Positions 6,953 to 27,162 of a DNA stretch of 64,000 nt are shown piece after piece (within the stretch, counting starts at the first letter, position 1; each line of letters opens with the position of its first letter). Source of the stretch: an uncultured Acidobacteriota bacterium (GTDB lineage Bacteria; Acidobacteriota; Thermoanaerobaculia; Multivoradales; JBCCEF01); assembly GCA_963730155.1 (NCBI GenBank), contig CAVSQV010000002.1, positions 960,944-1,024,943 on the forward strand. The letters run 5' to 3'. Below the pieces are notes generated by a model. The model was given only the letters and a program-made list of their open reading frames with translations, searched no databases and had not been told where the DNA came from. The translations under genes were made by a program, and so were the position numbers.

Positions 6953-7064
6953 GACGGCCGCACCGGCACTCGGCGAAGCCACCGGCCGGGGGTTCGTTCG
7001 TGCGTCGGGTCCGCGTGCGGGTCCGGCGCATGGTATTCTTGAACCCTCAGCTTGGAGGTAACGC

Positions 7065-7361
7065 ATGAGCAGGTTCGATCTCGAACGGTTCACCACGGAC
7101 TACGAGCGAGATCCGGCTCTGGCGGAAGGGTTCGCCGAGCTCGGTGACGACCCCCAGGGTTGGGCTCGGTTGGCGCGGGAGAAGGGCTACGAGATCACCC
7201 CGGACGAGGCCGGGAGCCTGCTCTCGAGCCGCCGCGAGCTCTCCGACGACGAGCTGGACGAGGTCGCCGGAGGCTGGGACGGAGACACCACCGGCGGAAG
7301 CGGAGGCAGCGGCGGCGGGACCGGCGACGGGACCGGCGGCGGCACGGGTGGCGGCCCCTGA
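7065..7361 (+). CDS. Nif11-like-leader RiPP precursor peptide with Gly-rich core
   Basis: 98 aa, GGAGG RBS 7 nt upstream. The leader MSRFDLERFTTDYERDPALAEGFAELGDDPQGWARLAREKGYEITPDEAGSLLSSRRELSDDELDEVAGG matches the Nif11-type leader pattern, ending in LSDxELxxVAGG (double-glycine cleavage motif). Predicted core: WDGDTTGGSGGSGGGTGDGTGGGTGGGP. Confidence 0.8.
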   Translation: MSRFDLERFTTDYERDPALAEGFAELGDDPQGWARLAREKGYEITPDEAGSLLSSRRELSDDELDEVAGGWDGDTTGGSGGSGGGTGDGTGGGTGGGP

Positions 7362-8454
7362 CCAGGACCCGCTCGCCGTCTTCGGCTGGGATGCCTGGCT
7401 CCCTCTCCTCGACCCTCGGCTCCCCTCTCGGCTGGTCGATCGCCGGGCCCGCGAGTGGCTCGCCGGCGTCTCCCGCCTGGCTCCGGGCGACTGCGCGGGC
7501 GTCCTCGAGCTGAGGCTCGCCGGCGATTCTCCCGCGGTCGACTTCGCCTTCCGCCTGATCCGCCCGGACCAGGCCCGATCGGTCTCCCCCCGGCTCTCCG
7601 CGGCGCGGGCGCGGAGCTTCGTCTCGCGCTGGGCGCGGCGGGAGCCCGAGCTGGAGCCGGTCTCCTCCCTCTGGCTGGAGTTCGACTCTCCCGGCGACGG
7701 CGCCGAGCGGGAGCCGGGGAAACCGCCGGCGCCGCTGCTCTGCGCCCGGTTCGGGCGCGTGGTCGACGCCGGCTGGCTGACCGGGTCGCTGGTGCCGGCG
7801 CTCTGCGGCGAGGCGCTTTCCGCCGCACGGCGCCACATCCTCGACCGCTGCCTCGAGGCGCTCCCCGCCGGGGCGCGCGTGCTCTACTTCTTCAGCCTCC
7901 TCGGCCGGCCCGGGGAAGCGGTGCGGATCGAGATCTTCGGCCTCGACCCGGCGGCCATGGCCGCGTACCTCCGGCAGGCGGCCTCCCCGCGGGAGGCCGA
8001 GCTGGTGGACGCCGCGGCGCCCCTGGTTGCGGGCGCCGGCCGCTACCACCTCTCGCTCGACGTCGGCGCGGAGGTCGCGCCGCGGATCGGCGTCGAGTGC
8101 GGGTTCGAGCGCCAGCCGCGGCGGGAGCCGCGGTGGGCCGAGCTGCTCGATCGGCTGGTTGCGCACCGCCTCGCCGACCCGGCCAAACGCGACGCCGTGC
8201 TCGCCTGGCCGGGCCAGGACAGCCCGTGGACCGCCCCCGGCCGCTGGCCGGCCGCCGCGCTCGGCCTCGGCGGCCACGGCGTCCGCGGCCTGAGCCATCT
8301 CAAGCTGGTGCTCCGCCCCGGCCGCGCGCCGAAGGCCAAGGCCTATCTGCTGTTCCAGCACCTGCCGGCGGGGGCCGGCGCCGGTCAGGGCGCGGCTGCG
8401 ACCGGCGCCGGCAGTCCGAGTGCGCCGGCCAGCTCCGCCACCTGTCCGCGCTGA
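7348..8454 (+). CDS. Hypothetical protein adjacent to the Nif11-type precursor (candidate tailoring enzyme)
   Basis: Track ORF 7144..8454. The part upstream of 7348 overlaps the precursor gene and is Arg/Pro-rich. GTG at 7348 is the first plausible start (start uncertain). About 368 aa with normal composition and five strand-turn-strand segments separated by helical stretches. No family recognised. Confidence 0.5.
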   Translation: MAAPDQDPLAVFGWDAWLPLLDPRLPSRLVDRRAREWLAGVSRLAPGDCAGVLELRLAGDSPAVDFAFRLIRPDQARSVSPRLSAARARSFVSRWARREPELEPVSSLWLEFDSPGDGAEREPGKPPAPLLCARFGRVVDAGWLTGSLVPALCGEALSAARRHILDRCLEALPAGARVLYFFSLLGRPGEAVRIEIFGLDPAAMAAYLRQAASPREAELVDAAAPLVAGAGRYHLSLDVGAEVAPRIGVECGFERQPRREPRWAELLDRLVAHRLADPAKRDAVLAWPGQDSPWTAPGRWPAAALGLGGHGVRGLSHLKLVLRPGRAPKAKAYLLFQHLPAGAGAGQGAAATGAGSPSAPASSATCPR

Positions 8455-10010
8455 GCCGCCAGGCCGAGCCCCGCGAAGGTCCGGTCGGCCTCGCCGAGCC
8501 TGGCGGCGGCGAGGTCGCGATCGCCCGCGGCGTGGGCCAGGCGGGCGAGGTCGAGCCGGGTCCAGGCGAGCTGGAACGGCGCCTCGATCGAGGCGAAGGT
8601 CGCCTCGGCCTCGCCCAGGCGCGCGGCGGCCTCGTCGCGGTCGCCGCCCGCCAGCGCAATCCGTCCCAGGGCGCGCAGCGCCAGCCCGGCGCCGTACGGG
8701 AAGCCGGCCTCGCGGGCGATCTCGTGCCCCTCGGTCCCGGCCTCGCGGGCCTCCTCGGGGCTGCCGGCGGCGAGGTGAGCCTCGGCGAGGAAGGCCGCGA
8801 ACCAGGCCTGGAGCTGCCGCATGCCGGTGCCGGCGAGGCGTGCGCCGGCCTCGCGCAGGGAGCCGATCGCCGCCCGGGCGTCGCCCTGGGCAAGGTAGGC
8901 GAAACCGAGGAATCCGGTCGCGACGGCGGTGTTGAGTGGATCCCTCGAGCGCTCGACGCCGCGCCGGCAGAACTCGACCGCCTCGTCGAGCCTCCCCTCG
9001 CAGGCGTGGAGATGGCCGATGCTCCACGAGGCGTCGAGGCGGTAGTCGTCGAGCGCCTCACCGATCGCGCAGGCGCGGTGGAACGCCCCGAGCGCCTGCT
9101 CGAGCTGGCCGAGGGCGAAGTGGTGGAAGCCGGCCACCCAGTAGGCCTGCCCCTGCCACCAGGGCTCGGCGCTACGCTCGAGCAGGACCACCGCGCGCAG
9201 GCTCTGCTCGAGCCCGGCCGATCCCTGCCCGGTCCAGAAGGCGACCCGGCCGAGGACGTAGCGGGCCTTGCCCTCGGTGGCCTCGTCGCCGCCCTGCTGC
9301 GCCGCCGCGATCGCGGCCTCGGCGTGCTCGCGCGCCGCCTCGGAGTTGCCGAGGTAGCTGTGGGTGTGGGCGAGCCAGAAGTGGTAGCGAGCGACCAGCG
9401 AGGGCTCGCCGATCCCCTCAAGGTGCTCGCGGTGACGCTCGAACACCTCCAGCGTCGCGGGCAGGCGCGCGAGCGGCAGGAGCGAGTCGGCGAGCTGGAG
9501 CAGGATCTCGACCACCCGCCGGTCGCGCCCCTCCGCGGGCAGGGCGCGGGCGTGCTCGAGCGCCTCGGACAGCGCCTTGGCCGCCTCGGCGTGGGCATAG
9601 CCGGCGGCGGCCCGGGCCGCGAACAGGCTCAGGTAGTGGACGGTCTTGCCGGGGTCGCCGGCACGGGGGTAGTGGTAGGCGAGGCGGTCGTAGACCTCCT
9701 CCAGGCGCCCGGCGTGGAGCGCCTCGAGGGCCGCCGCGGCCTGGGCGTGGAGCGCCCGCCGGCGGCTCTTGAGCAGGCTCTCGTAGGCCACCGTCTGGAT
9801 CAGCGAGTGCTTGAAGGTGTAGAGCTCGCGGTCGACCTCCGGCGCGCTGTAGAGGAGCTCGCGATGCTGGAGGTCGGCAAGGAGCGGCGGCAGCGGCTCG
9901 CCGCGGTCCCAGATCCGATCGAGCAGATCCACCGACAGCTCGCGCCCGAGCACCGAGGCGAGCTGGAGCAGGTGCTTCTGGGCCTCCGGCAGGCGGTCGA
10001 TGCGCGCCAT
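8385..10010 (-). CDS. Same regulator, C-terminal part: TPR-rich STAND-like domain
   Basis: Begins MARIDRLPEAQKHLLQLASVLGRE. In another frame just upstream, DADPATVQGVLMARIDRL joins it to the 10010..11608 ORF, so one indel near 10040-10060 splits a single protein of about 1070 aa. Repeated TPR-like helices follow (YLGNSEAAREHAEAAIA..., AQGDARAAIGSLREA...). Confidence 0.75.
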   Translation of the reverse strand: MARIDRLPEAQKHLLQLASVLGRELSVDLLDRIWDRGEPLPPLLADLQHRELLYSAPEVDRELYTFKHSLIQTVAYESLLKSRRRALHAQAAAALEALHAGRLEEVYDRLAYHYPRAGDPGKTVHYLSLFAARAAAGYAHAEAAKALSEALEHARALPAEGRDRRVVEILLQLADSLLPLARLPATLEVFERHREHLEGIGEPSLVARYHFWLAHTHSYLGNSEAAREHAEAAIAAAQQGGDEATEGKARYVLGRVAFWTGQGSAGLEQSLRAVVLLERSAEPWWQGQAYWVAGFHHFALGQLEQALGAFHRACAIGEALDDYRLDASWSIGHLHACEGRLDEAVEFCRRGVERSRDPLNTAVATGFLGFAYLAQGDARAAIGSLREAGARLAGTGMRQLQAWFAAFLAEAHLAAGSPEEAREAGTEGHEIAREAGFPYGAGLALRALGRIALAGGDRDEAAARLGEAEATFASIEAPFQLAWTRLDLARLAHAAGDRDLAAARLGEADRTFAGLGLAAQRGQVAELAGALGLPAPVAAAP

Positions 10011-11608
10011 CAGGACCCCCTGGACGGTGGCCGGATCGGCGTCTCCGACGGCAGCCCGGAATCGTCGCCGAGGGCGCGGGCCAGCTCCTCGAGGAAGAAC
10101 GGGTTGCCCTCGGCGCGCTCGACGATCCCGCGTACTGTCTCGGCGCCGACCTCGCGCCCGCGCAGGGCGGCGTTGACCACCGCCTCGCTGTCGGCGGGCG
10201 ACAGGCGGCGCATGACGATTTGGCTGGCGTAGGACTTCTGCAGCCAGCGCGGCTGGTAGCCCGAGCGGTAGGTGAGCAGCAGGAGCGCCCGCGCGCCGCC
10301 GATCTCCTCGATCAGCGACTCGAGGAACTCCTGCGAGGTCTCATCGATCCAGTGCAGGTCTTCGAGCTCCATCACCACCAGATTGCGGCGGCTGGCGGCC
10401 AGGACCATGCGGCGCATGGCGGCGAAGACGCTCGCCTGGAGCGCCCGCGGATCGCCTAGGTCGCCGCCGGCGGCGTCGCGGTGGCCGAGCAGGTGGAGCA
10501 ATGGCCCGAGGTGCTCCTCGTCCCCGAGCCCGACCGCCGCCAGGCTCGCGCGCAGCCGCTCGGCGGCGGTCTCGGCGTTGTCGCTCTCGTCTATCCTCGA
10601 GGCCCGGCGGACCATCCCGATGAACGGGAAGTAGGGGATGCCGCTGGCGTAGGACAGGCAGTGGCCGCGCAGGCGGCTGCCGGGCCGGTCGTGCAGGGTC
10701 CGAGAGAGTTCGATCAGCAGCCGCGACTTGCCCGCTCCGGCCTCGCCCGCGATCCCTGCCACCTGCCCGTGGCCGGCCTCGGCCTGGCCGCGCAGCTCCT
10801 CGAGTACCGCCATCTCGCGGGCACGGCCGACGAACGGGCTCAGCTCTTGCCCCCGGGGCCTCGCGGGTGCGCCGAGGGAGCGGGCGGTGCTGAGCACGCG
10901 CCAGACCGGCTCGGCGCCGGCATCGCCCTCCGGCAGCGGCCCCAGCGACTCCAGCTCCAGCTCCGGCTCGACCAGCGCCGCGATCTCGGCTCCGGCCAGG
11001 ATCCAGCCCGGTTGCGCGAGGTCCACCAAGCGGCGGGCGCGGTCGGCGGCCGGACCGACGATGGCGCCCGCCGGCCCGCCGATGATCACGCTTCCGCTCG
11101 CGAGCCCGATCCGGGCCTCGACGCTGGGCCCCTCGTCCTCCGACTCGCGGAGTCTGCGCGTGAGTTGGAGGGCGGCCAGGGCGGCTCGTTGCGGGTGGTC
11201 CTCGGCGGCGACCGGGGCGCCGAACAGGGCCAAAAAACCGCGACCGAGGAGCTGGGTCACAGTACCGCCGAAGCGCTCGACCTGCTCGCGTGCAACGTGC
11301 ACGAACTGGTTGAGCAGAGCGTGGAGGTCCTCCGCCTCGGCGTCGCCGGAGGTCGGGGTCATCAGCTCGCCGAGCAGGATGGTGATCTGCTTGATCTCAC
11401 CCTCTCGCGCCGCCGGACCGGGCGCGGCGCTCGCCTGCACGGCCGGATCGGGCGCGGCCAGCTCGGCGCCGCAGGAGCCGCAGAAGCGCGCGCCCGACAC
11501 CGCCGCCGCGCCGCAGCGGGGGCAGGCGGAGTCCAGCGGGGTTCCGCATCGCATGCAGAACCGGGCTTGCGGGGGACTCTCAAGGTCACAGCGCGAGCAA
11601 ACCATCAT
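10010..11608 (-). CDS. Signal-transduction regulator, N-terminal part: double zinc ribbon + adenylate/guanylate-cyclase-like domain + AAA/P-loop
   Basis: MMVCSRCDLESPPQARFCMRCGTPLDSACPRCGAAAVSGARFCGSCG (4 CxxC pairs). Cyclase-like GEIKQITILLGELM...RFGGTVTQLLGRGFLALFGAP. P-loop GIAGEAGAGKSRL. Ends in an out-of-frame tail; continues in 8385..10010. Confidence 0.8.
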   Translation of the reverse strand: MMVCSRCDLESPPQARFCMRCGTPLDSACPRCGAAAVSGARFCGSCGAELAAPDPAVQASAAPGPAAREGEIKQITILLGELMTPTSGDAEAEDLHALLNQFVHVAREQVERFGGTVTQLLGRGFLALFGAPVAAEDHPQRAALAALQLTRRLRESEDEGPSVEARIGLASGSVIIGGPAGAIVGPAADRARRLVDLAQPGWILAGAEIAALVEPELELESLGPLPEGDAGAEPVWRVLSTARSLGAPARPRGQELSPFVGRAREMAVLEELRGQAEAGHGQVAGIAGEAGAGKSRLLIELSRTLHDRPGSRLRGHCLSYASGIPYFPFIGMVRRASRIDESDNAETAAERLRASLAAVGLGDEEHLGPLLHLLGHRDAAGGDLGDPRALQASVFAAMRRMVLAASRRNLVVMELEDLHWIDETSQEFLESLIEEIGGARALLLLTYRSGYQPRWLQKSYASQIVMRRLSPADSEAVVNAALRGREVGAETVRGIVERAEGNPFFLEELARALGDDSGLPSETPIRPPSRGS

Positions 11609-11755: not shown

Positions 11756-11950
11756 ATGGCTGAGTACCCCGATCCCGTCATGACCGCCAGCATCAACTGC
11801 AACCGGCGCCTCAACCGTCTGGTGCAGGTCTCCGTCCGCCACCGGCAGGCAGCTCCGTCCACCTGGTCCTTCCGCTACGGCAAGTGCGGCGAGCACCTGA
11901 AGATCCGCGTGCGCGGTCCGCCGGAGATGACGACATTGAGCAGCTATTGA
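11756..11950 (+). pseudogene. 64-codon fragment resembling the start of a SpaB_C / thiopeptide-type bacteriocin biosynthesis domain
   Basis: ATG at 11756 to TGA at 11948-11950 (tail of track ORF 10481..11950). In MAEYPDPVMTASINCNRRLNRLVQVSVRHRQAAPSTWSFRYGKCGEHLKIRVRGPPEMTTLSSY, the W.FRY....HLKIRVRG block resembles the WFF(I)RY..PHLRLR motif near the N-terminus of lanthipeptide-dehydratase C-terminal-type domains. It is far too short to be functional. Lies in lower-GC DNA. Confidence 0.3.
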
Positions 11951-11975
11951 CAAAACCAGTGGCGACTGTTAGACC
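11947..11975 (+). promoter_or_regulatory. Candidate sigma70-type promoter for the precursor operon
   Basis: Consensus TTGACA at 11947-11952, 17-nt spacer, weak -10 TAGACC at 11970-11975, about 50 nt upstream of the precursor ATG. Sits in the only lower-GC intergenic stretch of the locus. Pattern match only. Confidence 0.25.
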
Positions 11976-12026
11976 GTAAGCAGACTGTGTCAGAACCACA
12001 GAACCTCAACCCGACAGGAGGGCCCC

Positions 12027-12182
12027 ATGGCTGAAAACACCCCCAAGACCAAGGAAGAAATGGAGGAGCGCCTCGAAGATCTGCAGCTCGATCCGGAAGA
12101 CCTCGACGCCGTGGCCGGTGGCGCGACCTGCCAGACCTGCTACAGCTCGTACCAGCCCAAGGACGTGGAGGTCGAGTCCTGA
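12027..12182 (+). CDS. Double-glycine-leader RiPP precursor peptide (51 aa, not in ORF track)
   Basis: AGGAGG at 12016-12021, ATG at 12027, TGA at 12180-12182. Translation MAENTPKTKEEMEERLEDLQLDPEDLDAVAGGATCQTCYSSYQPKDVEVES: acidic leader ending DLDAVAGG (compare ELDEVAGG in the 7065 precursor). 19-aa core ATCQTCYSSYQPKDVEVES is rich in Cys/Ser/Thr/Tyr. Lies immediately upstream of the modification genes. Confidence 0.7.
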   Translation: MAENTPKTKEEMEERLEDLQLDPEDLDAVAGGATCQTCYSSYQPKDVEVES

Positions 12183-12226
12183 GCTGACATGCCGGCAGGG
12201 CTGCGCTCACCGCGCTCGCCCTTCCA

Positions 12227-12261
12227 GTGCGGCTTCCTGGCTGATTGCCAGGAAGCCGCAC
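12227..12261 (+). terminator. Perfect 15-bp stem-loop between precursor gene and enzyme genes (attenuator / transcript-stabilising hairpin)
   Basis: GTGCGGCTTCCTGGC (12227-12241), loop TGATT, GCCAGGAAGCCGCAC (12247-12261): exact reverse complements, 45 nt after the precursor stop. No U-tract follows, so it is not a canonical intrinsic terminator. Confidence 0.5.
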
Positions 12262-12307
12262 CGGAAGCCGAACGTCTCACTTCTGGTTAGAGAGGGCCCA
12301 GACCGTC

Positions 12308-13870
12308 GTGTACGTCGACCCCGTCAACGACAGCGTTGAACGTGCGTGGACTCACAATGTTCCTTTCGGTGACTGCCGGTACATCCGTCAACGGGTGATC
12401 GACAGCGTCAGCCGGCGGCTCGATCTTGCACAGCGCTTGTTCCCCCAGGCGACGCCTGTTCTGGAGCGACTCCGATCTCTGGATGACGCGACCGCCGCTC
12501 GTGTGCTTGAGCACCCGTTCCTGCGCTCCGTGGTGCTTGCCGCAATCCGGCACCTGAAACACCCGTGGGAAACCCTTACACACGAGCAAGTCGAGCAGTA
12601 CCTCGAACAGCTCGGGATCCTGCTCGCCGAAGGCTGGAGAGGCGGGAAGCTCTACTCGCTCTCCCTGCTGCTGGAAGAAGAGGATGACGAGGGTGCGGCC
12701 CGACACAAGCTCTGGCAGTGGACTGGCGAACAGGGAGATCGGACGCTCACGGGTATTACCCCCACGGTCTTCCTGAAGAACAGCCCCAACTGCGTCTTTC
12801 ATCGTCCCACCGAGGAGGAGGCCGGGAACCTCCGCCAGGGGATTGCGCTTCTCCGGGAGCTCTTCCCTCTCCTGGCGCCCAGCGTCCTGCGTCATGTCGA
12901 TGTCATCGCACTCGTCAGTGCCAAGCCCGCTCGCGGCGAGGCCAGGCTTCCCGACGGCAACCCCCTCACTACCGATCCGCTCCTCTCCTCTACCGCCGAT
13001 ACATCGCCCGGGGTGGTCTTCGTCAGCCCCAGTGTGCTGACCAACCCCTGGTATATCGCGGAAATCATCCTGCACGAGGGCCTTCATTCGAAGCTGTATG
13101 ACGTGATGGCGACACACAACCTGCTTCGGCCGAACTACACGAATGAAGAGTCTGCCCAGATCCACCCGCTGTGGCACAGATCTTCCGTATCGTGGGATGT
13201 GCACCGCTCCCTCTTCGCCATGCACGTCTATGCCCACCTCGCCCTGTTCTTCCAGCGGGTGGCCAGGAACTTCGATGCGCTGGCACCACGCTTCGGACCT
13301 CTCCATGTCATCGATGCACGGCTGTCGATGCGCCGCTCGCTCGATCGAGCGCACTTCCTCGGAATGAAGCTGGCGGAGGTCGGCACCCGGGACCTGGGAG
13401 CCGCTGGCCAGCTCCTGCTTGCGCAGCTTCAGGAGATGCTGCTGGTGCTCGATGGCGCGTACGGAGAGGATGCTTCCGTGAATGCCGCGCCCAGGCCCGA
13501 AGAGGTGGCTCAGCGACTCGTCGGGGACCTGTATGCTCGACAGACCCTGGCGCTGGAGCGCGTCCTCGCCCACTGGCGCACGATCTCCTCGCACCCCCAG
13601 GGCGCCGGCATCCCCGCCCTCCTCACCGAAGTCGCCCAACTGGACGCCGCGCTCGTTGGGCAGGATGCGGCCATACCGCCGATCTCCGCTGAGGTCAAGG
13701 ACACGCTGAGAGTACTCATCGACCTCCGGAAGCAGGTGGCCCATCGGTTTATGAACGGGGGGGCATCGCCCAGCCGCTCGGAGATCAGCCTCGACACCCT
13801 GATGGACTCCGCCGACCGCTCGGGAAGCCTGTTCGCTCGAGCCAACATCACGATCGAACTCGACCCCTGA
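12308..13870 (+). CDS. HExxH-motif domain protein 1 (TIGR04267-like; candidate peptide-modifying metalloenzyme)
   Basis: Track ORF 12245..13870. The TTG at 12245 lies inside the hairpin, so GTG at 12308 is preferred. Motifs: VPFGDCRYIRQR, LLRELFPLLAP, NPWYIAEIILHEGLHSKLYD (HExxH), HPLWH, HVYAHLALFF. Paralogous to the next gene. Confidence 0.8.
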   Translation: MYVDPVNDSVERAWTHNVPFGDCRYIRQRVIDSVSRRLDLAQRLFPQATPVLERLRSLDDATAARVLEHPFLRSVVLAAIRHLKHPWETLTHEQVEQYLEQLGILLAEGWRGGKLYSLSLLLEEEDDEGAARHKLWQWTGEQGDRTLTGITPTVFLKNSPNCVFHRPTEEEAGNLRQGIALLRELFPLLAPSVLRHVDVIALVSAKPARGEARLPDGNPLTTDPLLSSTADTSPGVVFVSPSVLTNPWYIAEIILHEGLHSKLYDVMATHNLLRPNYTNEESAQIHPLWHRSSVSWDVHRSLFAMHVYAHLALFFQRVARNFDALAPRFGPLHVIDARLSMRRSLDRAHFLGMKLAEVGTRDLGAAGQLLLAQLQEMLLVLDGAYGEDASVNAAPRPEEVAQRLVGDLYARQTLALERVLAHWRTISSHPQGAGIPALLTEVAQLDAALVGQDAAIPPISAEVKDTLRVLIDLRKQVAHRFMNGGASPSRSEISLDTLMDSADRSGSLFARANITIELDP

Positions 13871-13880
13871 GGATTGTCTC

Positions 13881-15002
13881 TTGACGAGCTACGCCGAGAC
13901 ACAGACAGCATGGCTATCTGCGGAGAAGCAGCTGGCTCAGGACGTGCCGTTTGGCTCCGCCGACTACATCCGCGAGCGAGCTGCCGCGAGCTACCACCGT
14001 CGCCTGGAGTTGCTGGGCGAGCACCTACCCGCGGCCGAGCGGTTCGCCGAGGCGCTCGGCCCCGCCGCGAGCAGCGACTCCATCCAGGTCTTTGCGGATC
14101 CGGTCGTCCGGGGTTCCATCGACGATCTTCTTCGGGCCTTCAGGTTCGCCGGAGAGCGGAAGCCCAATGACGACCAGCTCGAGCTCTTCGCGTACTACAG
14201 CGCGCGTCTCGACGAGCTGAAGCGCGATGCCGCGGACACCGCTGACAGCTTTCGACAGGAGCTCCTCGACCGGCCGATTCGATATTGGTCCGATGCGAGC
14301 GCCCGGACGGTCCGTGACCGCGCCTTCGCTGCGATGTTGCGGCGGCACCTGCCGGGGGCGCGCGTCTACGAGGCGGAGGCGGAGACGGAGGCCGCCATCA
14401 GCCAAGGCTTGGCGCTCCTCCAGGAGCTGCTGCCGCTGGCTGCACACAGCGCCGTGTCTCATCTTCACTTCGTCATAGTCGACGAGTTCTACGACAAGGT
14501 GGGTTCCGCGACGATCGCCCCCATTCTCGGGACGATCTTTCTGGCTCGAAGCACGCTACGGAGCCCCTGGACCATCGCGGAGGGCATCCTCCACGAGTGC
14601 ATGCACCTCAAGTTCGTGGAGCTTGAGCATACGCATTCGCTCCTGCCCCGGGGTTACTCCGAGCAGGCCTCTCCTCGTCTTCATCCGCCCTGGCACCCCG
14701 AGACGGAGGCCTGGCCGATGAACCGGGCGCTCACGGCGGCCCATGTCTACGTCACCCTCGCCCTGTACTCGGTGGCCTCCGAAGCAGCGGCGCCGGAGTT
14801 TCAGGCGCGCTATGGTCCGTGCCGGCGTTCGCAGCTTCTCGTTGATCCGATCGCTGCCGGCGCACGCGCGCGCAGTCTCATCGACCTCGCGTCGGGGCAC
14901 CCCGAGAGCCTGGGCAAGGCAGGGCGGGCGTTCCTCGAATGGATGAGGGATGTCCTTGAGAAGCTGGCGGCAGGGCCCACCGTGCTGCGCAAGGCTGTCT
15001 GA
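13881..15002 (+). CDS. HExxH-motif domain protein 2 (paralog of the preceding gene)
   Basis: TTG at 13881, 7 nt after GAGGA (13869-13873). 373 aa. Motifs: VPFGSADYIRER, LLQELLPLAAH, SPWTIAEGILHECMHLKFVE (HExxH), HPPWH, HVYVTLALYS. Collinear with protein 1 but lacks its C-terminal extension of about 150 aa. Confidence 0.8.
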   Translation: MTSYAETQTAWLSAEKQLAQDVPFGSADYIRERAAASYHRRLELLGEHLPAAERFAEALGPAASSDSIQVFADPVVRGSIDDLLRAFRFAGERKPNDDQLELFAYYSARLDELKRDAADTADSFRQELLDRPIRYWSDASARTVRDRAFAAMLRRHLPGARVYEAEAETEAAISQGLALLQELLPLAAHSAVSHLHFVIVDEFYDKVGSATIAPILGTIFLARSTLRSPWTIAEGILHECMHLKFVELEHTHSLLPRGYSEQASPRLHPPWHPETEAWPMNRALTAAHVYVTLALYSVASEAAAPEFQARYGPCRRSQLLVDPIAAGARARSLIDLASGHPESLGKAGRAFLEWMRDVLEKLAAGPTVLRKAV

Positions 15003-15006
15003 GACC

Positions 15007-16155
15007 TTGCCCGTACACGAGCTGCCGGCGGTGCCCCCTGCCGAAACAGCCGCGCCCATTCCCGGCCGCGCCACGGCAGCCGCAACAGCCGAGTACGCCC
15101 GGCGTCTTCAACGGGTCGCTCGTCCTGAGCACTTCCGCGACGTCCATGGCTTGACGGTCTCGTCGATCGGCATCGGCACCTTCCTGGGTCCCGCGACCAG
15201 CGAGGCCGATGCAACCTACCGCAGCGCCATCGCTCGAGCCATCGAGCTCGGGTGCAATCTCATCGACACGGCGATCAACTACCGCCACCAGCGCGGCGAG
15301 CGGTGCGTCGGCGCGGCGGTGCGCGCTGCCTGTGAAGACGCCACCCGGCGCAGTGAGCTCGTCGTCTCGACCAAGGCCGGCTACCTGCCGTTCGACGGAG
15401 AGATGCCTCAGGACGCGAACCGATACCTGCACGAGCAGTACGGGGAGCGCTTGCAGCTCGCGCCCGACGAGATCGTCGAGGGTCACTGCATCGCTCCCGC
15501 ATTCCTGCGGGACCAGATTGCCAAGAGTCGCGTCAACCTCGGGCTTGAGACCCTCGACGTCTTTTACCTGCACAACCCCGAAGAGCAGCTCCGTTTCGTC
15601 GATCGGGCGATCTTCGAGCGCCGACTGCGCGCCGCCATGGCCACCCTCGAGGAGTCCTGCCGGCAGGGGCACGTCGCCAGCTATGGCCTGGCGACCTGGA
15701 CTGCCTTTCGCGAGAGTACGGAGCACCCGCAGTACCTGTCACTCGACGAGGTCGTCCGGTGGGCGGCCGAGGTGGGGGGGCCGCAGCATCACTTCCGCTT
15801 TCTTCAACTGCCGTTGAACCTGAAGGCACTTGAGCCCTGTATGCTCGCCAACCAGTGGCACGATGGCCGGTGGTGCACTCTGCTTCAAGTCGCGCAGGCC
15901 CATGGCATTTACATCGTCACCTCCGCCCCTCTGTTGCAGGGGCGCATCCTCGGTCGGCTGCCCCTGCCCATCAAGGAGGCCTTCGCCACGCTGTCCAGCG
16001 ATGTGCAGCGCACCGTGCAGTTCGTGCGCTCGATACCCGGAGTCGGCAGCGTGCTGGTGGGAATGAGTCGTCCCCAGCACGTGGAGGAGAACCTGGCGCT
16101 GGCGGGTTTCGCCCCGGACACCGCCGCCGTGCAGCAAGTGTTCCGGCGCAGCTGA
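15007..16155 (+). CDS. Aldo/keto reductase family oxidoreductase
   Basis: Track ORF 14950..16155. TTG at 15007 is 5 nt after the upstream stop; the ATG at 14950 would overlap by 53 nt, so the start is uncertain. AKR pattern GLTVSSIGIGTFLG...AIELGCNLIDTAINYRHQRGERCVG...VVSTKAGY...LDVFYLHNP. Confidence 0.8.
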   Translation: MPVHELPAVPPAETAAPIPGRATAAATAEYARRLQRVARPEHFRDVHGLTVSSIGIGTFLGPATSEADATYRSAIARAIELGCNLIDTAINYRHQRGERCVGAAVRAACEDATRRSELVVSTKAGYLPFDGEMPQDANRYLHEQYGERLQLAPDEIVEGHCIAPAFLRDQIAKSRVNLGLETLDVFYLHNPEEQLRFVDRAIFERRLRAAMATLEESCRQGHVASYGLATWTAFRESTEHPQYLSLDEVVRWAAEVGGPQHHFRFLQLPLNLKALEPCMLANQWHDGRWCTLLQVAQAHGIYIVTSAPLLQGRILGRLPLPIKEAFATLSSDVQRTVQFVRSIPGVGSVLVGMSRPQHVEENLALAGFAPDTAAVQQVFRRS

Positions 16156-16240
16156 CACACGACGGGCGGGGGGCGCTCTACCGTTGAGCGCCAGCGTGTG
16201 GGCACTCATCGGGCGCTCGGCTAGGAGCCCTGGATTCTTC

Positions 16241-17326
16241 ATGTCGGGTCCACTGGTTTCCATTGTCATTCTGTCGTGGAACCGGCCCAGGTCCACCCGC
16301 TCGACCCTTCGGGCTCTCGCCGACGTTCCGGCCGGCGTGCCGCGCGAGGTCATCGTCGTGGACAACGGCTCCAACGAACGAACAGGCGACGAGCTGACGG
16401 CGCTCCAGGGCCTGGGGCTCATCGATCGCCTCGTCCTGCTGCCCGAGAACCGGGGAACGTCTCCTGGTTACAACGTGGGCTTCCGTGCCGCAGATCTCCG
16501 CTCGAGCTTCTTCACTAAGCTCGACAGCGACGTCGAGATCCTGACGCCGGACTGGCTGAAGGAGCTGATCGGGCTGCTGGACGAGAATCCCGGCGTCGGA
16601 ATTGCCTCGACCGAAATCGTCAACCACGTTGGCATCCAGGAGCTGCCCGTCATCCGCCTGGAGACCGGGCACCAGGTGCGGGACTGGCAAGGGTGCCCGG
16701 CGGGAGGCGGCGGGATGACGTTTCGCCGCTCGCTCTACGAGGATGTCCGCGGCTTTCGGGAGAGCTACGGTGAAGGCCTGTTGCTGATGCCGGACGACCT
16801 GGAGTTCTTCTACAGGATCCGAGAGCGAAACCTGAAGGCCTACTACGCCCACGCCATCCACTCGCGGACGATCGACCACCTCGAGGAGAGCCCCGCCTCC
16901 TATCACGCCTTCAAGAAACGGCAGTACTTCCTACTGCGCACCCGCTACTTCGATCTAGCCCGCACCGGCGACACGGTCTTCGTACCCCACTTCGTTTCCG
17001 TGGAGGCTCTTCCGACCCTCATCCATCCCGGGCAATCGATCCATGTGCGCTGCTCCATCGCGGCGGCAGATCGACGCAGCATGGCCCTTGGATGCACGGT
17101 GGTCTCGGCGGAGACGAACAGCATCGCGGACTGTAGCGTGACCGCGGACATCCAGACCGCGGCGCCCCTCTCCGTGCACGAGTTGCCGCTCCGGATTCCA
17201 CCCACCTTGCTGCCCGGGCCCTACCTCGTGAAAGCGATCCTTTGGAGCGACCCCACCGCAGGGGTCGTTTCCGAACGCCTGGCGGACCTCGTGCAGATGG
17301 GCGAGATCACTCTCGAGCCTGGTTGA
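16241..17326 (+). CDS. Family 2 glycosyltransferase with a C-terminal extension of about 120 aa
   Basis: ATG at 16241 (codon 20 of track ORF 16184..17326). GT-A signature [12 protein letters not shown]...[13 protein letters not shown]...[12 protein letters not shown]...KLDSDVEI (DxD). The C-terminal third ([23 protein letters not shown]...[10 protein letters not shown]) is beta-rich and unassigned. Confidence 0.8.
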
Positions 17327-17396: not shown

Positions 17397-20300
17397 TCAG
17401 ACCTGCTGCCGCTCGACCATGCGGCGGAAGGTGCCCCGGCCCCCGGCCAGCTCGTCGTACGTCCCAGCCTCCACCACCCGACCCCGTTCCAGCACGTAGA
17501 TGCGGTCGGCGTTCTGGATCGTGCTCAGGCGGTGGGCGATGACGATGCGCGTCGCCTTCAGGCCCTCCAGGCTGTCGGCTGACGATCTCCTGCGTGCGGT
17601 TGTCGAGGGCGCTCGTCGCCTCGTCGAAGAGGATGATCCGCGGCCGGTGGACGATCGCGCGGGCGATCAGCAGGCGCTGCTTCTGGCCGCCGGAGAAGGT
17701 CTCCGCCGCCCTCGCTGATCACGGTGTGCATGCCCATCGGCATGGCCTTGATGTCCTCCTCCAGGCCGGCCATGCGCGCCGCCTCCCAGGCGTCGTCGAT
17801 CCCCAGGTTGCGAGCTGCCGACGATGTTGGAGAAGATGTCCCCGGCCATCGGCCGGCCGTTCTGGAGGACGACGCCGATCTGGCGGCGCACCGACTGGAG
17901 GGCGAGCGCGGCGAGGTCCTGGCCGTCGAAGTAGATCGAGCCCGGCGGTCGGCTTCTCGAAGCCGAGGATCAGCCGCAGGCAGGTCGACTTGCCGGCGCC
18001 CGAGGGCCCGACCAGGGCGATGAACTCCCCGGGCCGGGCCCGGAACGAGACGTCGTCGAGGATCAGCGGCCCGTCCTCCTGGTAGCGGAAGGAGACGTGG
18101 CTGAACTCGATCTCGCCGGCCAGCTCGCCGGCCTCGGCCTTGGATCGGATCGACCTCCGGGGACTGCCTCGAGGATCGGCTGCAGGCGCTCGTAGACCGG
18201 CACCATGGCCAGCACGCTGGAGAAGATCGCCGATCATCGTCAGCGCCGCCGCCAGGAACTGGCCGAAGGCGGCGTTGAAGGCCAGGAACTCGCCGATCGA
18301 CAGGCGATCTCCTCCGGCGGAGAAGCCGACCATCGGCGAAGATGGCCAGCGAGGTGAGCACGCCGTAGACGGCGTTGAACGCGGCCTGGACGTTGGCGAC
18401 CCGCTGCGCCGCGACGGCCTGCTCGCCGCTGCTCGGCGAAGCGCTCGGCCCAGCGGCGCGAAGGCGCGCGTGCTCGGCGCCGCCGACCCGGAGCTTGGCG
18501 ATGCCGTGGATCAGGCCGAAGAGGAGGCTCGCGATCTTGCCCTGCGAGGCTCGAGGAAGCGGCGCTGGTGGCGGAGCTGGAGGTAGGCGCAGGCCGGTGG
18601 TCACCGCCACCAGCAGCGGCCACCAGGCCGGTCGCCACCAGGGCCAGCCGCCAGCTGTAGTAGAAGAGCAGCGCCGAAGCTGAAGACGGAGAAGACCGCC
18701 GCCAGGACCGAGGTCAGGACGTTGCCCGGTCAGCAGCTCGCGGATGGTGTCGATGCCCAGCGAGCGGTTCGCCAGGTCGCCCACGGTGAAGCGGCGGAAG
18801 AAGGACACCGGCAGCGACAGCAGCCGGTCCCAGACGGCGGCCTGGAGCGAGCCGTCCATCTTGCCGCCGAGGCGCAGCACCGCGATGCTGCGGGTCACCT
18901 GGAAGACCGGCGCGGCGAGCGCGGCGAGCGATCAGGGCCAGGGTGATCTGGACGAGGCGGGCGCGGTCGGCCGCCGGGATGACGTTGCCGAAGAGCTGGC
19001 CGGTCAGGATCGGCACCAGCAGCCCGAGCAGGCCGCCGCCGAGCCCCATCAGCAGGATGGTCGCGAGGTCGCGCCGGCGGCCCGCGAAGGCGAGGCCGCA
19101 GGAGGTCCCGCAGGCGCAGCGGCCGCTCGGGCAGCGGCGGATAGAACATGTACGCCTCGCCGGCGAGGCTCTCCGCCACGGCCGGCGTCGACCGGCGTGC
19201 GGCGTCCGCTCGACCGGATCGACCAGCTCGTAGCTGCGGGGCGAGGTGGGCAGCAGGGCCACCGGCCGGCCGGCGCTTCTGCTGCGTCGTCCGCGGACCG
19301 GAAGCGCCACGAGCGGGCCGTTGTCGCGGCGCCACCAGTCGTCGCGCAGGATCACCCGCCGGTGGCGGATCCGCGACGCCGCGCAGATCCGGGCGAGCCG
19401 GTCTCCGCTGGCGGCAGCTCGGCCGTCGCGTCCGGCGGGCTGCGGATGCTCGATGCCCTGGACCTCGCCGACCAGCCGGCAGGCGGCGAGCAGGGGGTCG
19501 GAGCCGGCGTCGAGCGGCGCGCCCGCGGCGGTCCGGGCGCCGAGCACCGAGGCCAGCCGGGCGTAGCGCCGTCTCCAGGGTCGGGCGGTCGAGGTCGGTC
19601 TTGCGGCCGAGCCGCTCCCGCTCGTCGCTGCGCGTCCTCCTCGCGCAGCCGGTGCGACGTAGGCGAGCAGCAGGCGGTGGAAGCGGTCGAGCCCCTCCCA
19701 GAGCGCCGCCGCTCCGTAGCAGGCGCTCGCGGTCGACGCACGAGAGGGATCCGCACCTCGCCGTCGCTGACCAGCCAGGTCTCGTCGGGGACCGGCAGGA
19801 GGAAGTCCTCGGGCGGCGAGGGCCAGGTCGTCGCCGGCCGAGGAAGCGGAGCGACCCGTCCAGGTGGCGCACCCAGACGACGCCGTCGGGCGGTGCGCAG
19901 CGCGCCGTCCCCACCTCGGCCAGGCGCACCTCGGCGCCGGGCCGCAGCTCCTGGAAGACCTTCGGCGGCCGGCCGCGGACGACCTCGCCGGTCAGCCGCC
20001 GCACCCAGCCGTCGAGCCAGCGGGTCAGCGCCGGCGGCGAGCTCCGTCCGGCGCGCCAGCTCGCGGAGGGCGGCGGCGGGCAGCCGGAGCAGCCGGGTGC
20101 CGGGGTGGCCCACCGCCAGGAGGGCGCTCCGGGGCTCGCGCGCGTCGCCGACGCGCCGCTCGACGGCCTGGAACGGCGGAGCTGCCGGCCGAGGTCGAGG
20201 CTCGCCACGAGCTCGCCGCCGTCGAGGGTGGCGAGATGCTGCGGACGCCGTCGCCCGCGCCGGCGCCGCTCCCGCCGCGCGGCGGCGCACGGCGAAGAGC

Positions 20301-20439
20301 TCGACCCGCCCGGTGCGCACCAGCCAGGCCGCTCGCGCCGGCGCCGAGCCGCAGCGGCGGGTTGCCGCCGGCCTCGATCTCCTCGCGCCGTCGGCTCGGC
20401 GAGGCAGGCGGTCAGGTCCAGGTCGGCCGGGGTGCTCAT
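17397..20439 (-). pseudogene. NHLM/NHLP-type bacteriocin export ABC transporter, permease/ATPase subunit with long N-terminal regulatory-like domain; heavily frame-disrupted
   Basis: ATG at 20439, TGA at 17397-17399. Real sequence is spread over all three frames. Recognisable pieces: [180 protein letters not shown] (Walker A), [14 protein letters not shown] (signature), [11 protein letters not shown] (Walker B), [30 protein letters not shown]. Four frame changes traced in the last 520 nt alone. Confidence 0.8.
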
Positions 20440-20446
20440 CGGTCGC

Positions 20447-22699
20447 TCACTCGGCTGCGATCAGCCGGGCGTAGGGGCCTTCCGCACGCGCCTTGAGCTC
20501 GTCGTGGGTCCCGCGCTGCGACGACCTTGCCGCGCTCGAGGACGATGATCTCGTCGGCGTCGCGGATGGTGCTCAGGCGGTGGGCGATGATCAGGCAGGT
20601 GCAGCCGCGCCGCCGCAGGCTCTCGTCGATCCGCTTCTCGGTCGTCGGGATCGAGCGCGCTGGTCGCCTCGTCGAGCACCAGGAGCGTCGGCCGGCCGAC
20701 CAGCGCGCGGGCGATCTCCAGCCGCTGGCGCTGGCCGCCGCTCAAGTTGGCGCCGCCCTCCTCGACCGGGCTGTCGTAGCCGCCGGGCCGGGCCGCGATG
20801 TCGTCGTGGATGCAGGCGTCCTTGGCCGCGGCCACCACCTCCGGGCAGCGGCACCGTCGCGTCCCACAGCGTCAGGTTCTCGCGCACCGTCCCCTCGAAC
20901 AGGAAGACGTTCTGGTCGACCACGGCCAGCGAGTTGGTCGAGCACGCCGCGGCGGGATCTCGGCGCGGCTGCCGGCCGTCGAACAGGATCTCGCCGCTCC
21001 CACGGCTGGTAGAGCCCGGTGACCAGCCGGGCGACCGTCGACTTGCCGCTCCCCGAGCCGCCGACCAGGGCGACGCGGGCGCCGGGCTCGAGCCGCGAGG
21101 TCGAGGCCCTCGATCAGCGGCGGGTCGAGCCGGCTGTAGCCGAAGGTGACGCCGCGCAGCTCCAGCCGGCCGGCGAGCTTGACCGGCAGCTCCGCGGGCG
21201 GCTCCTCCGGCGCCGCCCCCGGTCGGCCGCGGTCGCGCGGTCGACCTGGTAGCGCAGCACGTCGTCGAGCCGGTTCATGTCCCCCTCGACCACCTGGAGC
21301 CGGCCGCCGAGGCTGACCAGCCGGTTGACCGGCGCGATGAAGCTGCGCCATCAGGACCTGGAAGGCCACCAGCCCGCCGAGCGTCAGGTCGCCGTCCATC
21401 ACCCGCAGGCCGCCGAGGCCCAGGATCAGCGCGGTGTTGACCGCCGGCGAGCAGCGGCGGCACGGCGTCGAGCATCTGGGTGTAGCGCTCCAGCTCCTGC
21501 CGGCGCGTTGACCACCTTGGCCTGGTAGCCGGCCCAGCGGGCGAAGAGGTCCGCCTCGCCGCCGGTCGCCTTCAGGGTCTCGATGATCTGCAGGCCGCCG
21601 ATCGCCGTGCCCATGGAGCTTGCCCTGGTCCTGGAGCAGGCGGCGGTTGCCGTCGACCCGCTTGCGCGAGACCCAGCGCAGGGCCGCGACGTTGAGCGAG
21701 ACGACGCCGATGCCCGACCAGGGTCAGCAGCGGGTCGTACTGGACCATCAGGACGGCGAAGAAGACGATCATCAGCGCGCCCAGGGCGTTGGTCGCGAGG
21801 TCGCGCGACGAGGAGCTGGGCCACGCGGTCGTTGATCGCCGACCCGCGAGCTGATGTCGCCGGCGAAGCGCTGGGTGAAGAACTCGATCGGCAGGCGCAG
21901 CACGTGCCAGAGGAAGCGGCTCGAGCCGGCCACCGCCAGCCGGGTCTCCAGGCGCAGCAGGTAGGCCTGCTGCAGCCAGGTCAGGAGCGCCGGTCAGCGA
22001 GCGCGGCGAGCGCCCATGCCGAGGAGCAGCGGCGGCAGCCAGTCGCGGCGGCCCTCGAGCAGGACGCTCGTCGACGAAGACCTTGGAGAAGACCGGCGAC
22101 GACCAGCCCCGGGACGACCAGGGCCAGGCCGGCGAGGCAGCACGAAGGCGAGCGCCGCCGCCGGCGCCGGCGAGCCGGCGGCGCGAGCGCCGGGAGCAGG
22201 CTGCGGCGGCGCGCCGCCGCGTCTCGAACTCCGGACCCGGCTCGAAGGTCAGCACCACGCCGGTGAAGCGCCTGGTCGAGCTCCTCCTCGCGTCACCGCG
22301 CGCGGCCCGGCGGCCGGGTCGTTCAGGTGGACGCCGCCCCTTGCGGAAGCCCTCGAGGACCACGAAGTGGTTGAAGTTCCAGTGCAGGATCATCGGCGGC
22401 TGCGAGCGTCGCGCAGGGCCTGCCGGCTCCTTCTTGAACCCCTTGGCCTCCAGGCCGTAGCGGCGCGCCGCCTTGACCATGTTGCTCGGCCTTGCTGCCG
22501 TCGCGCGAGACGCCGCAGGCGATGCGCAGCTCCTCGAGCGGCACCCAGCGGCCGTAGTGGGCGAGGACGATGGCGAGGGCCGCCGCGCCGCACTCGACCG
22601 CCTCCATCTGGAGGACGGTCGGGCGTGCGCACCGGCCGCGGCGAGCGCGGTCGCCGCCGCCGCGGCCGAGCCAGCGGGCGAGGAGCGCCGGAGCTTCAT
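20447..22699 (-). pseudogene. NHLM/NHLP-type bacteriocin export ABC transporter with N-terminal C39 peptidase domain (PCAT); heavily frame-disrupted
   Basis: ATG at 22699 overlaps the HlyD stop (ATGA). TGA at 20447-20449, 7 nt before the next gene. C39 domain: [88 protein letters not shown] part: [32 protein letters not shown], and in another frame [24 protein letters not shown]...[18 protein letters not shown]. Many frame changes. Confidence 0.8.
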
Positions 22700-26716: not shown

Positions 26717-27149
26717 GGTCCTCAAGGTATTCGCGGAGCTCGATCGCGGTCACCTCGCCGGGCACGCTCGCGTACTCGCCGATCTCGATCTGTGAGAGCA
26801 CCCAGGCGAGCTGACCCGGAGTCAGGCCGCCGTCCTTGCGCTGCGCCGACGCCAGATGCTCGTCGACCGAGTACCCCGCCATCTCCAGCGCCCTGACGTC
26901 GACGAGGTCGCGGATCTCGGCACGCGACAGGAGGGCGCAGAGCTTGTTCGCGAGGATCTCCTGAGGGGGATCGACGCGGATGGTCCCGCGGGCCACTTCG
27001 GTCAGCGCGGCGACGCCTTCCTCGATGCGATCCTCGGTCGTGAAGAGATCGAGGTCCTTCGTAGTCCGGTGCCCGAGGTGATAGCCGGCGAGCGCGGCAC
27101 CTCCGGTCAGGAAGAAGCCGCTCTCGCGCCCGAAGAACCCGGCGAGCAC
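26679..27149 (-). CDS. AbiEii/AbiGii-like nucleotidyltransferase toxin family protein (short)
   Basis: C-terminal part of track ORF 26679..27662. GTG at 27149 proposed as start. VLAGFFGRESGFFLTGGAALAGYHLGHRTTKDLDLFT matches the GG.AL...R.T.DLD nucleotidyltransferase motif of the DUF1814/AbiEii family. Shorter than typical members. Confidence 0.5.
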   Translation of the reverse strand: MLAGFFGRESGFFLTGGAALAGYHLGHRTTKDLDLFTTEDRIEEGVAALTEVARGTIRVDPPQEILANKLCALLSRAEIRDLVDVRALEMAGYSVDEHLASAQRKDGGLTPGQLAWVLSQIEIGEYASVPGEVTAIELREYLEDLKNRLAGRAFPE

Positions 27150-27162
27150 CTCTTGCTGAAGG

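Follow-up and report, generated by a model that had tools for sequence, protein, structure and literature searches.

Organization of the gene cassette

We analysed a 64,000-nucleotide stretch of the genome of an uncultured Acidobacteriota bacterium (contig CAVSQV010000002.1), hereafter called the window. At positions 12027-17326 of the window lies a genuine gene cassette, intact and conserved, that is predicted to make a small, modified and secreted peptide and represents a rare and well-delimited family of peptides that are synthesized ribosomally and modified post-translationally (RiPPs), with a duplicated HExxH core and an aldo/keto reductase partner that is so far unprecedented. The cassette consists of five tightly packed, co-directional genes on the + strand, encoding in this order a precursor peptide, two paralogous oxygenases of the alpha-ketoglutarate (aKG)-HExxH type (Hx1 and Hx2), an aldo/keto reductase (AKR) and a GT2 glycosyltransferase. 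An earlier note on this DNA had proposed a RiPP-type operon at this place, and the proposal is supported by the conserved micro-open reading frame (ORF), by the peptide-modifying enzyme families that accompany it and by the linked exporter genes of the NHLM type.

The precursor gene (12027-12182, +) encodes 51 amino acids and is preceded by an AGGAGG sequence located 6-11 nucleotides 5' of its ATG. The gene for Hx1 (12308-13870, +) starts with GTG and encodes a protein of 520 amino acids with the motif HEGLH, and that for Hx2 (13881-15002, +) encodes 373 amino acids with the motif HECMH. They are followed by the genes for the AKR (15031-16155, +; 374 amino acids according to the gene caller) and for GT2, a GT-A glycosyltransferase of 361 amino acids (16241-17326, +). 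The gaps between genes listed in the earlier note are right, except that the start of the AKR is ambiguous, as an in-frame TTG at 15007 is also possible. The precursor had been described there as hidden; however, all five products are present as called, albeit nameless, genes in the public NCBI/ENA contig record.

The upstream border had been set at 11756, which takes in a 64-codon ORF (11756-11950) without a match in Pfam or NCBIfam even at E <= 1 and without a counterpart in L006, one of the related loci described below. Homology to the DNA of L006 starts at position 12004 of the window, and 11756-12003 holds no supported gene. We also considered this ORF as a piece of the C-terminal domain of a lanthipeptide dehydratase, an idea that was dropped for the same two reasons, the missing family match and the missing homology to L006. 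A scan for promoters and terminators gave nothing usable, and there are no tRNA genes near the cassette.

A conserved precursor peptide with an invariant core motif

The precursor can be divided into a leader, MAENTPKTKEEMEERLEDLQLDPEDLDAVAGG, and a core of 19 residues, ATCQTCYSSYQPKDVEVES. The leader fits the double-glycine consensus, with L(-12), D(-8), L(-7), V(-4) and GG (the window reads L(-12)DPED(-8)L(-7)DAV(-4)AGG). Besides the window, we read 17 distinct loci, and we assembled a set of 19 distinct precursors, 17 of them from loci and two retrieved by searching 1.84 billion representative proteins exhaustively. The leader LQLDPEDLDAVAGG is common to all 19, within a block LQ[LI]xPxDLxxVxGG, and the double glycine itself is present in 18, the exception being L007, where it is replaced by Ala-Ala. 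Precursor lengths across the family range from 47 to 60 amino acids, with a leader of about 30.

The core contains the motif C-x-T-C-Y-[S/T]-x-Y, again invariant in 19 of 19 precursors (C-x-T-C-Y-S-x-Y in the window). What varies is the number of residues between the double glycine and the first Cys (0-6), the identity of motif positions 2 and 7, and the C-terminal tail, which is 1-15 residues long and mainly acidic or polar; two precursors stop 1-2 residues past the motif. The invariant residues of the motif are two Cys, two Tyr and two hydroxyl residues, and they can be parsed as two interleaved C-x-[S/T]-x-Y triads, C1-T3-Y5 and C4-S6-Y8. These two triads parallel the duplication of the oxygenase, a correspondence that may link triads and enzymes. 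At the level of sequence, an invariant stretch of eight residues inside an otherwise variable core of 15-25 residues is typical of a modification site. We thus find a short gene beside modifying enzymes, a conserved leader and a core that is variable except for its motif, as expected for a RiPP precursor.

The earlier note had asked whether homologous loci carry a micro-ORF with a double-glycine leader. Such an ORF was always found, at an identical position in every related locus, and the codons of its leader differ between the window and the other loci by synonymous as well as non-synonymous changes. Because of this fixed position, of the invariant leader and eight-residue motif and of the synonymous codon differences, the comparison indicates that the micro-ORF is not a chance ORF. 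The search of the representative proteins retrieved only five related precursor clusters, all with the motif; the precursor family is therefore rare. The precursor has no NCBIfam or Pfam match at E <= 0.01, including the NHLP (TIGR03793) and Nif11 (TIGR03798) models.

A perfect stem-loop of 15 bp (GTGCGGCTTCCTGGC-TGATT-GCCAGGAAGCCGCAC) is located on the + strand between the precursor gene and Hx1 (12227-12261). The region 12183-12310 folds with -69.7 kcal/mol (z = -4.7). All 14 aligned loci retain the stem, and since the sequence as such is conserved, compensatory changes are few. There is no U-tract 3' of the stem-loop, and Rfam yielded only chance matches in this region. By analogy with the operons of other RiPPs, we infer that it may be an attenuator or an mRNA-stabilising element which would set the ratio of precursor to enzyme transcripts.

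Two paralogous oxygenases of the aKG-HExxH family

The earlier note had predicted that the two HExxH proteins belong to TIGR04267, the model for aKG-HExxH-type peptide beta-hydroxylases. With its cut-off at 40 bits, this model gives 50 bits for Hx2 and 38.5 bits for Hx1, whereas Pfam has no model matching either protein. Hx1 and Hx2 align as paralogs along the entire length that they share (hhalign prob 100, E 1e-51, 27% identity over 347 columns), and Hx1 bears an additional helical C-terminal extension of about 135 amino acids. HEGLH is invariant in 28 aligned homologs of Hx1 and HECMH in 26 aligned homologs of Hx2. Both paralogs moreover share K(+6), W(+33), W(+40), R(+44), H(+50) and Y(+52), which correspond in Hx1 to the invariant residues H256, E257, H260, K262, W289, W296, R300, H306 and Y308, motif included. 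Since the same H-E-x-x-H, K, W, W, R, H, Y set occurs at identical spacing in both, Hx1 and Hx2 both look catalytically active, and neither looks degenerate.

PDB sequence searches with Hx1, Hx2 and a profile of Hx2 gave no match, and fold comparison alone succeeded. The AlphaFold2 models (pLDDT 83.5 for Hx1 and 83.1 for Hx2) were compared with known structures by Foldseek. The sole match of the Hx1 model was 8s5f, the HExxH domain of ChlBH, described as 'a novel alpha-ketoglutarate dependent oxygenase' (E 2e-7, prob 1.0, TM 0.67), and the Hx2 model matched the same structure (E 1e-7, prob 1.0, TM 0.58-0.64); taken over both models, the 8s5f chains were matched with E values of 1e-7 to 8e-7, prob 1.0 and TM 0.58-0.67. 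The Hx2 model had a second structural match, PDB 22ob ('SjiH-Ni'). Neither model retrieved a zincin protease, and no protease match reached E < 0.03. The prediction of the earlier note is thus borne out by both models, and the possibility that it had raised against itself, that the two proteins could be ordinary metallopeptidases, finds no zinc protease among the structural matches. By profile and modelled fold, Hx1 and Hx2 belong to the aKG-HExxH peptide hydroxylase family, and an Fe(II)/aKG-dependent activity is predicted for both.

A constant reductase and an optional glycosyltransferase

The other two enzymes were also placed correctly from the start at the level of the broad family, with matches of 80.4 bits to PF00248 for the AKR and of 54.6 bits to PF00535 for GT2. 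The Asp-Tyr-Lys-His tetrad of the AKR is intact, D77, Y82, K113 and H179 being invariant in 19 aligned sequences. The AKR reaches no named subfamily, its best NCBIfam match scoring 33 bits against a cut-off of 448. We considered a subfamily specific to the cassette and rejected it, as relatives at about 50% identity form a very large family of stand-alone genes, about 370 amino acids long, in unrelated contexts. The AKR has probably been recruited from this stand-alone family. It is present in all 14 loci that continue past Hx2, and is a constant partner of the HExxH pair and a core component of the cassette.

GT2 has a D-x-D motif (LDSDVE) and a conserved C-terminal domain of about 110 amino acids. 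Its best NCBIfam match is MftF, with 47.7 bits against a cut-off of 280. GT2 was found in 7 of 13 scorable loci, being absent from L005, L007, L009, L018, L026 and L027, and is an accessory tailoring gene. The earlier note had likened it to the glycosyltransferases of glycocins. This likeness was not recovered in the PDB, where the single sequence has no match at E <= 0.01 and a profile of seven orthologs matches chondroitin synthase (E 3.6e-4) and other generic GT-A enzymes only, so that the idea of a glycocin-type enzyme was given up. We also looked for a residue of the precursor that would track GT2; C-T-T-C seemed to be linked to the loci without GT2, but the link vanished with more loci. 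Other sugar-related genes neighbour some of the cassettes: a second GT2 in L006 and L010, a GH1 and an SDR gene in L026, and a polysaccharide deacetylase in L001 and L025.

Distribution of the cassette

A set of 5.8 billion protein clusters contains about 35-40 close relatives for each of Hx1 and Hx2. Almost all of these come from soil or sediment metagenomes and from metagenome-assembled genomes (MAGs) of Acidobacteriota, one of them classed in Thermoanaerobaculia, and one comes from Corallococcus llansteffanensis. A scan of metagenomes added just four short loci. The order precursor-Hx1-Hx2 is found in every locus having that region, with the precursor directly upstream in 17 of 17, and the strict order precursor-Hx1-Hx2-AKR spans Acidobacteriota, Corallococcus and one locus with 41-45% protein identity. 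As the AKR occurs in 14 of 14 loci and GT2 in 7 of 13, the core of the system consists of the precursor, Hx1, Hx2 and the AKR, glycosylation being optional.

The G+C content of the window is about 72%, that of the stretch from 12 to 18 kb 64-67%. The cassette itself (12004-17326) has 65.4% G+C, versus 73-74% in the 6 kb on each side, and most related cassettes are also close to 65% regardless of their flanks (57-66% over all). Its orientation with respect to the exporter and regulator genes is inverted relative to L006 and L025, and in other loci the neighbourhoods of the cassette are unrelated. This G+C contrast, together with the inversion and the unrelated neighbourhoods, suggests that the cassette may be a mobile module or a recent replacement. 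A gene for a duplicated permease of the ADOP family lies downstream of the cassette in the four Acidobacteriota loci L001, L005, L006 and L025 (TIGR03434, 966 bits in L006) and is missing from the window; this permease could be an immunity or export component.

An export operon with frame-broken genes converges on the cassette

An export operon that is orthologous to an NHLM-type set converges on the cassette from the opposite strand (17398-25512, -). It comprises genes for an ABC2 permease/ATPase (about 17398-20440), a C39-peptidase ABC1 transporter (about 20450-22640), a HlyD-type adaptor (about 22700-23965) and an OEP/TolC-like protein (about 23985-25512), all four of which are frame-broken in the window. 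The Pfam matches of these genes are fragments only, and tblastn with the intact proteins of L006 switches frames. In L006 and L025, the same export genes are intact and lie upstream of the precursor on the same strand. The proteins of L006 exceed the cut-offs of TIGR03797 (947 bits), TIGR03796 (1105 bits) and TIGR03794 (367 bits), so the designation of the operon as an NHLM-type C39 export system is correct by orthology; a small cyclic-nucleotide-binding protein of L006 scores 159.4 against the cut-off of 161 of TIGR03896. The earlier note was therefore right about the type of the operon, although the exporter that it expected to cleave the leader is heavily frame-broken in the window. An exporter adjoins the cassette in L004, L006 and L025, where the C39-peptidase ABC transporter is intact, and also, in broken form, in the window.

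Frame breaks were noted in two regions, 17400-25100 (-) and 8780-10840. Compared with L006, the exporter DNA has 40-68 gap openings per approximately 2.3 kb, mostly insertions of a single G or C in the window; these sit outside homopolymers and amount to 4-15 frame-shifting indels per 500 bp. The indel rate changes sharply at about 17.5 kb, and the coding part of the cassette (12.5-17.5 kb) has a single frame-shifting gap, at the junction of Hx2 and the AKR. The insertion bias, the rate of about 16 per kb at a nucleotide identity of 76-84% and the non-homopolymer sites are unlike the natural decay of a pseudogene, so that the breakage looks technical: it is probably either an assembly or polishing error in the G+C-rich flanks or the consequence of a consensus with higher coverage over the cassette. 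The contrast between intact enzyme genes and broken neighbours, which the earlier note had pointed out, is true, but for the same reason it is weak evidence for selection on the enzymes; the broken exporter is likewise weak evidence for its loss.

On the other side of the cassette, 8385-11608 (-) encodes a protein of the STAND type with double-zinc-ribbon, guanylate-cyclase-like, AAA_16 and TPR domains (Pfam), a candidate regulator. It is split into two ORFs in the window (10010-11608 and 8385-10010), with one frame change near 10034-10070 according to tblastn, and forms a single gene of about 1105 amino acids in L006 and L025, where it also adjoins the cassette. Just past the export operon are the genes for an intact DUF7005 protein (25529-26716, +; 403 bits) and for an AbiEii-type nucleotidyltransferase toxin (26679-27662, -).

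Comparison with characterized systems

In the literature searched, we found no paper that joins HExxH proteins, an aldo-keto reductase and a precursor peptide, none that joins an aldo-keto reductase with RiPP and leader peptide, and none that ties HExxH peptide enzymes to Acidobacteria or Corallococcus. The statement of the earlier note that no characterised RiPP class is known to have this combination of enzymes is in line with this result. Nicotinamide-dependent reductases such as ElxO and LanJ act on carbonyl or dehydro groups in the tailoring of lanthipeptides. They are SDR, zinc-ADH or flavin enzymes whose targets are dehydroalanine-derived groups made by lanthipeptide dehydratases; in contrast, the reductase of the cassette is an AKR, and there is no lanthipeptide dehydratase.

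The known aKG-HExxH enzymes are leader-dependent Fe(II)/aKG peptide oxygenases that beta-hydroxylate His and Asp (ChlBH), Phe (BpmH, predicted), Gln (PflC/PosC) or Pro (PesO) (PMC12636437, PMC13060819, PMC12257519). PflC and PosC also alpha-hydroxylate a residue, thereby cutting the backbone (PMC12636437). The activities of the family are not yet predictable, and the family is not class-defining (PMC13060819, a preprint of 2026). A macrocyclisation of Cys and Tyr in a RiPP by an aKG-dependent enzyme, which may or may not be a HExxH protein, is listed as reference 22 of PMC12636437.

The pfl and pos clusters of Pseudomonas are among the nearest parallels. Like the cassette, they encode a stand-alone, leader-dependent aKG-HExxH enzyme (PflC/PosC; IPR026337/TIGR04267), have ABC transporters in the cluster and modify their precursor near its C-terminus (PMC12636437). 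Unlike the cassette, they combine a single HExxH enzyme with an MNIO-nitroreductase fusion and a GNAT protein, their precursors have long NHLP-like leaders and a poly-Gln core followed by ARMD, and they are without AKR, GT2 or Cys/Tyr motif (PMC12636437). ChlBH (PDB 8s5f), as summarised from Morishita et al. (2024) in PMC12636437, combines an HExxH iron site with peptide beta-hydroxylase activity, as predicted for Hx1 and Hx2, with which it shares just 14-15% sequence identity. According to the same summary, a radical SAM cyclophane synthase forms part of the same fusion protein, the cyclophane has to be installed beforehand, and the residues hydroxylated are His and Asp, whereas Hx1 and Hx2 are free-standing paralogs and the cassette has no radical SAM gene. 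The nitrilobacillin (pes) cluster also includes an aKG-HExxH peptide hydroxylase, PesO, acting on Pro (PMC13060819). There, about 75% of clusters have the HExxH enzyme, as an accessory beside an MNIO and an Asn-synthetase-like enzyme (PMC13060819); in our cassette, the HExxH pair is the invariant core. Finally, the exporter, adaptor and cyclic-nucleotide-binding protein of NHLM systems (TIGR03794/03796/03797), as outlined for Haft et al. (2010) in PMC12636437, have equivalogs or near-equivalogs in L006 and L025. The precursor of the cassette, unlike NHLP and Nif11 precursors, is only 47-60 amino acids long, has a leader of about 30 and matches neither model.

The aKG-HExxH oxygenases have been recognised only in 2024, and the handful characterised so far has brought a new substrate or reaction each time. 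Here, the family appears as the sole and duplicated core enzyme, locked to an AKR, rather than as an accessory, and with a well-defined substrate, an invariant octapeptide in a compact system of four to five genes. Such a system could reveal new oxidative peptide chemistry and open a way to natural products of the phylum Acidobacteriota, which has been little explored for compounds of this kind. It is a good lead for experiments and for genome mining, yet one of many uncharacterised RiPP families.

Proposed pathway and alternative readings

Starting from the gene content and order, the family and fold of the enzymes, the conservation of their catalytic residues, the precursor motif and the linkage to an exporter, we infer a pathway in which the chemistry of every step, the pairing of each enzyme with one triad, the residues targeted and the product's biological role are predictions. 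The precursor of 51 amino acids would be recognised via its conserved double-glycine leader (LQLDPEDLDAVAGG). Hx1 and Hx2, using Fe(II) and alpha-ketoglutarate, would then each oxidise one triad, C1-T3-Y5 or C4-S6-Y8. The likeliest reaction would be hydroxylation of a side-chain beta-carbon, with the benzylic C-beta of Tyr5 and Tyr8 as first choice and the C-beta of Thr3 and Ser/Thr6 as second. The two Cys could either trap the oxidised positions as thioethers or pair as a C-x-x-C disulfide. The new oxygen function would then be acted upon by the AKR in an NAD(P)(H)-dependent step, in which either a carbonyl is reduced or the new alcohol is oxidised, and GT2, in about half of the loci including the window, would add a sugar to a hydroxyl group. 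The C39-peptidase ABC transporter, together with the HlyD adaptor and the TolC-like protein, would finally cut after Gly-Gly and export the product.

It is rather probable that the peptide is oxidised by both HExxH enzymes, and we consider it likely, with some reservation, that the cassette makes a small secreted RiPP with mainly oxidative modifications along these lines. Any specific chemistry, by comparison, can be put forward only with considerable doubt. One tentative version is that Hx1 and Hx2 together with the AKR turn the interleaved triads into a compact cross-linked octapeptide, which would define a new RiPP class; an oxidise-condense-reduce route could, for instance, give two thioether rings of the Cys-Tyr or Cys-Thr/Ser kind. 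If true, this would exceed the simple beta-hydroxylation known for the family and give the AKR superfamily its first role in ribosomal peptide maturation. More generally, it is conceivable, though we would not expect it, that the family hides new cross-linking chemistry.

Several points weigh against the pathway that we propose. Tyr, Thr, Ser and Cys are not reported as substrates of aKG-HExxH enzymes in the literature consulted, and Hx1 falls just under the cut-off of TIGR04267. What pairs the two triads with the two enzymes is a sequence pattern. In the literature searched, the AKR is without precedent in RiPP pathways and its substrate is a guess, while outside the cluster it is most closely related to stand-alone genes that have no assigned role. 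As for export, five other loci have no exporter within 8-10 kb, and in the window the exporter genes are frame-broken.

Another reading, which we regard as unlikely, sees the product as a beta-hydroxylated and glycosylated peptide, with GT2 as the defining, glycocin-like enzyme and an AKR that only supplies or tailors the sugar. An intact GT2 with its D-x-D motif does follow directly after the AKR in the window, and sugar-related genes recur near some loci (L001, L006, L010, L025 and L026). However, GT2 is absent from 6 of the 13 scorable loci, whereas the AKR is never absent, even where there is no glycosyltransferase at all, and no precursor residue tracks the presence of GT2. Glycocins (SunA/SunS, GccA, ThuS) have a double-glycine leader, a GT2-family glycosyltransferase, C39-ABC export and a helical hairpin with two nested disulfides. 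In the cassette, by contrast, GT2 is optional and has no similarity to solved glycocin glycosyltransferases, and the core, CxTCY[ST]xY, has two Cys in a C-x-x-C arrangement rather than the glycocin pattern. An unrelated and optional glycosyltransferase and a core whose architecture does not fit indicate that the cassette is not a glycocin system. Accordingly, of the 'hydroxylated and glycosylated' peptide put forward in the earlier note, the HExxH oxygenase family is borne out, but glycosylation fits only a subset of the loci, because GT2 is missing from the others.

The oxidative pathway could also lead to a metal-binding or redox-active small molecule, similar to a chalkophore, a siderophore or a quinone cofactor, instead of an antimicrobial peptide. 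In this case, Tyr would be converted to a catechol or quinone and the AKR would act as a quinone or carbonyl reductase. The invariant residues, exactly two Cys, two Tyr and two hydroxyl residues, would suit such a product, and an exporter with an outer-membrane component fits the secretion of a metallophore. The best NCBIfam match of GT2, the mycofactocin glycosyltransferase MftF, points in the same direction, but at 47.7 bits it is far under its cut-off of 280. Moreover, ring hydroxylation of aromatic residues by aKG-HExxH enzymes is not reported in the literature consulted, and no metal-uptake gene, for a TonB-dependent receptor or a periplasmic binding protein, lies beside the cassette in any locus. 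We therefore hold a product of this kind to be improbable. It is very improbable that the HExxH proteins are metalloproteases or immunity proteins for an essentially unmodified class-II-type bacteriocin, with the AKR and GT2 as unrelated neighbours: HExxH is the classical zincin motif and PflC cleaves hydrolytically when the leader is missing (PMC12636437), but the only significant Foldseek matches are 8s5f (both models) and 22ob (Hx2) and none is a zincin, the NCBIfam match is TIGR04267, the order precursor-Hx1-Hx2-AKR is strict across Acidobacteriota, Corallococcus and the locus with 41-45% identity, and an invariant octapeptide in a variable core is typical of a modification site.

Divergent loci and related leaders

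Two of the loci depart from the common pattern. In L009, from an Acidobacteriota MAG, a transposase-like ORF of 361 amino acids (8833-9918) separates Hx1 from Hx2 and takes the place of the end of Hx1, and the precursor stops one residue past the motif (…CTTCYSVYG); this copy of the cassette may be decaying. In L007, the most divergent locus, the Ala-Ala at the end of the leader is followed by D-P-Q before the motif, and a pyroglutamyl peptidase gene (Peptidase_C15; 6563-7306, -) converges on the AKR, which hints at a different route of N-terminal processing.

The search of the representative proteins also retrieved P0203, a protein of 481 amino acids with approximately ten tandem units, each consisting of a double-glycine-leader-like segment and a short Cys core (…IELSEEDLEAIVGG…C..C(G)xNHNET…). 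Only the similarity of the leader led to this protein, which may be a precursor with multiple cores from an unrelated family of RiPPs. A different cluster with the same type of leader was found in Sorangium cellulosum (L028, CP162580.1, 9723-15698). In it, an ORF of 52 amino acids (…VELQLDTDDLDAVARCVSLSPDGAACGMYYEIFEF) is followed by genes for one Hx1-like protein (34% identity), two proteins of the PEP-utilising/PPDK type and an MFS transporter. This arrangement suggests that enzymes of the Hx1 type may recognise this leader in more than one pathway.

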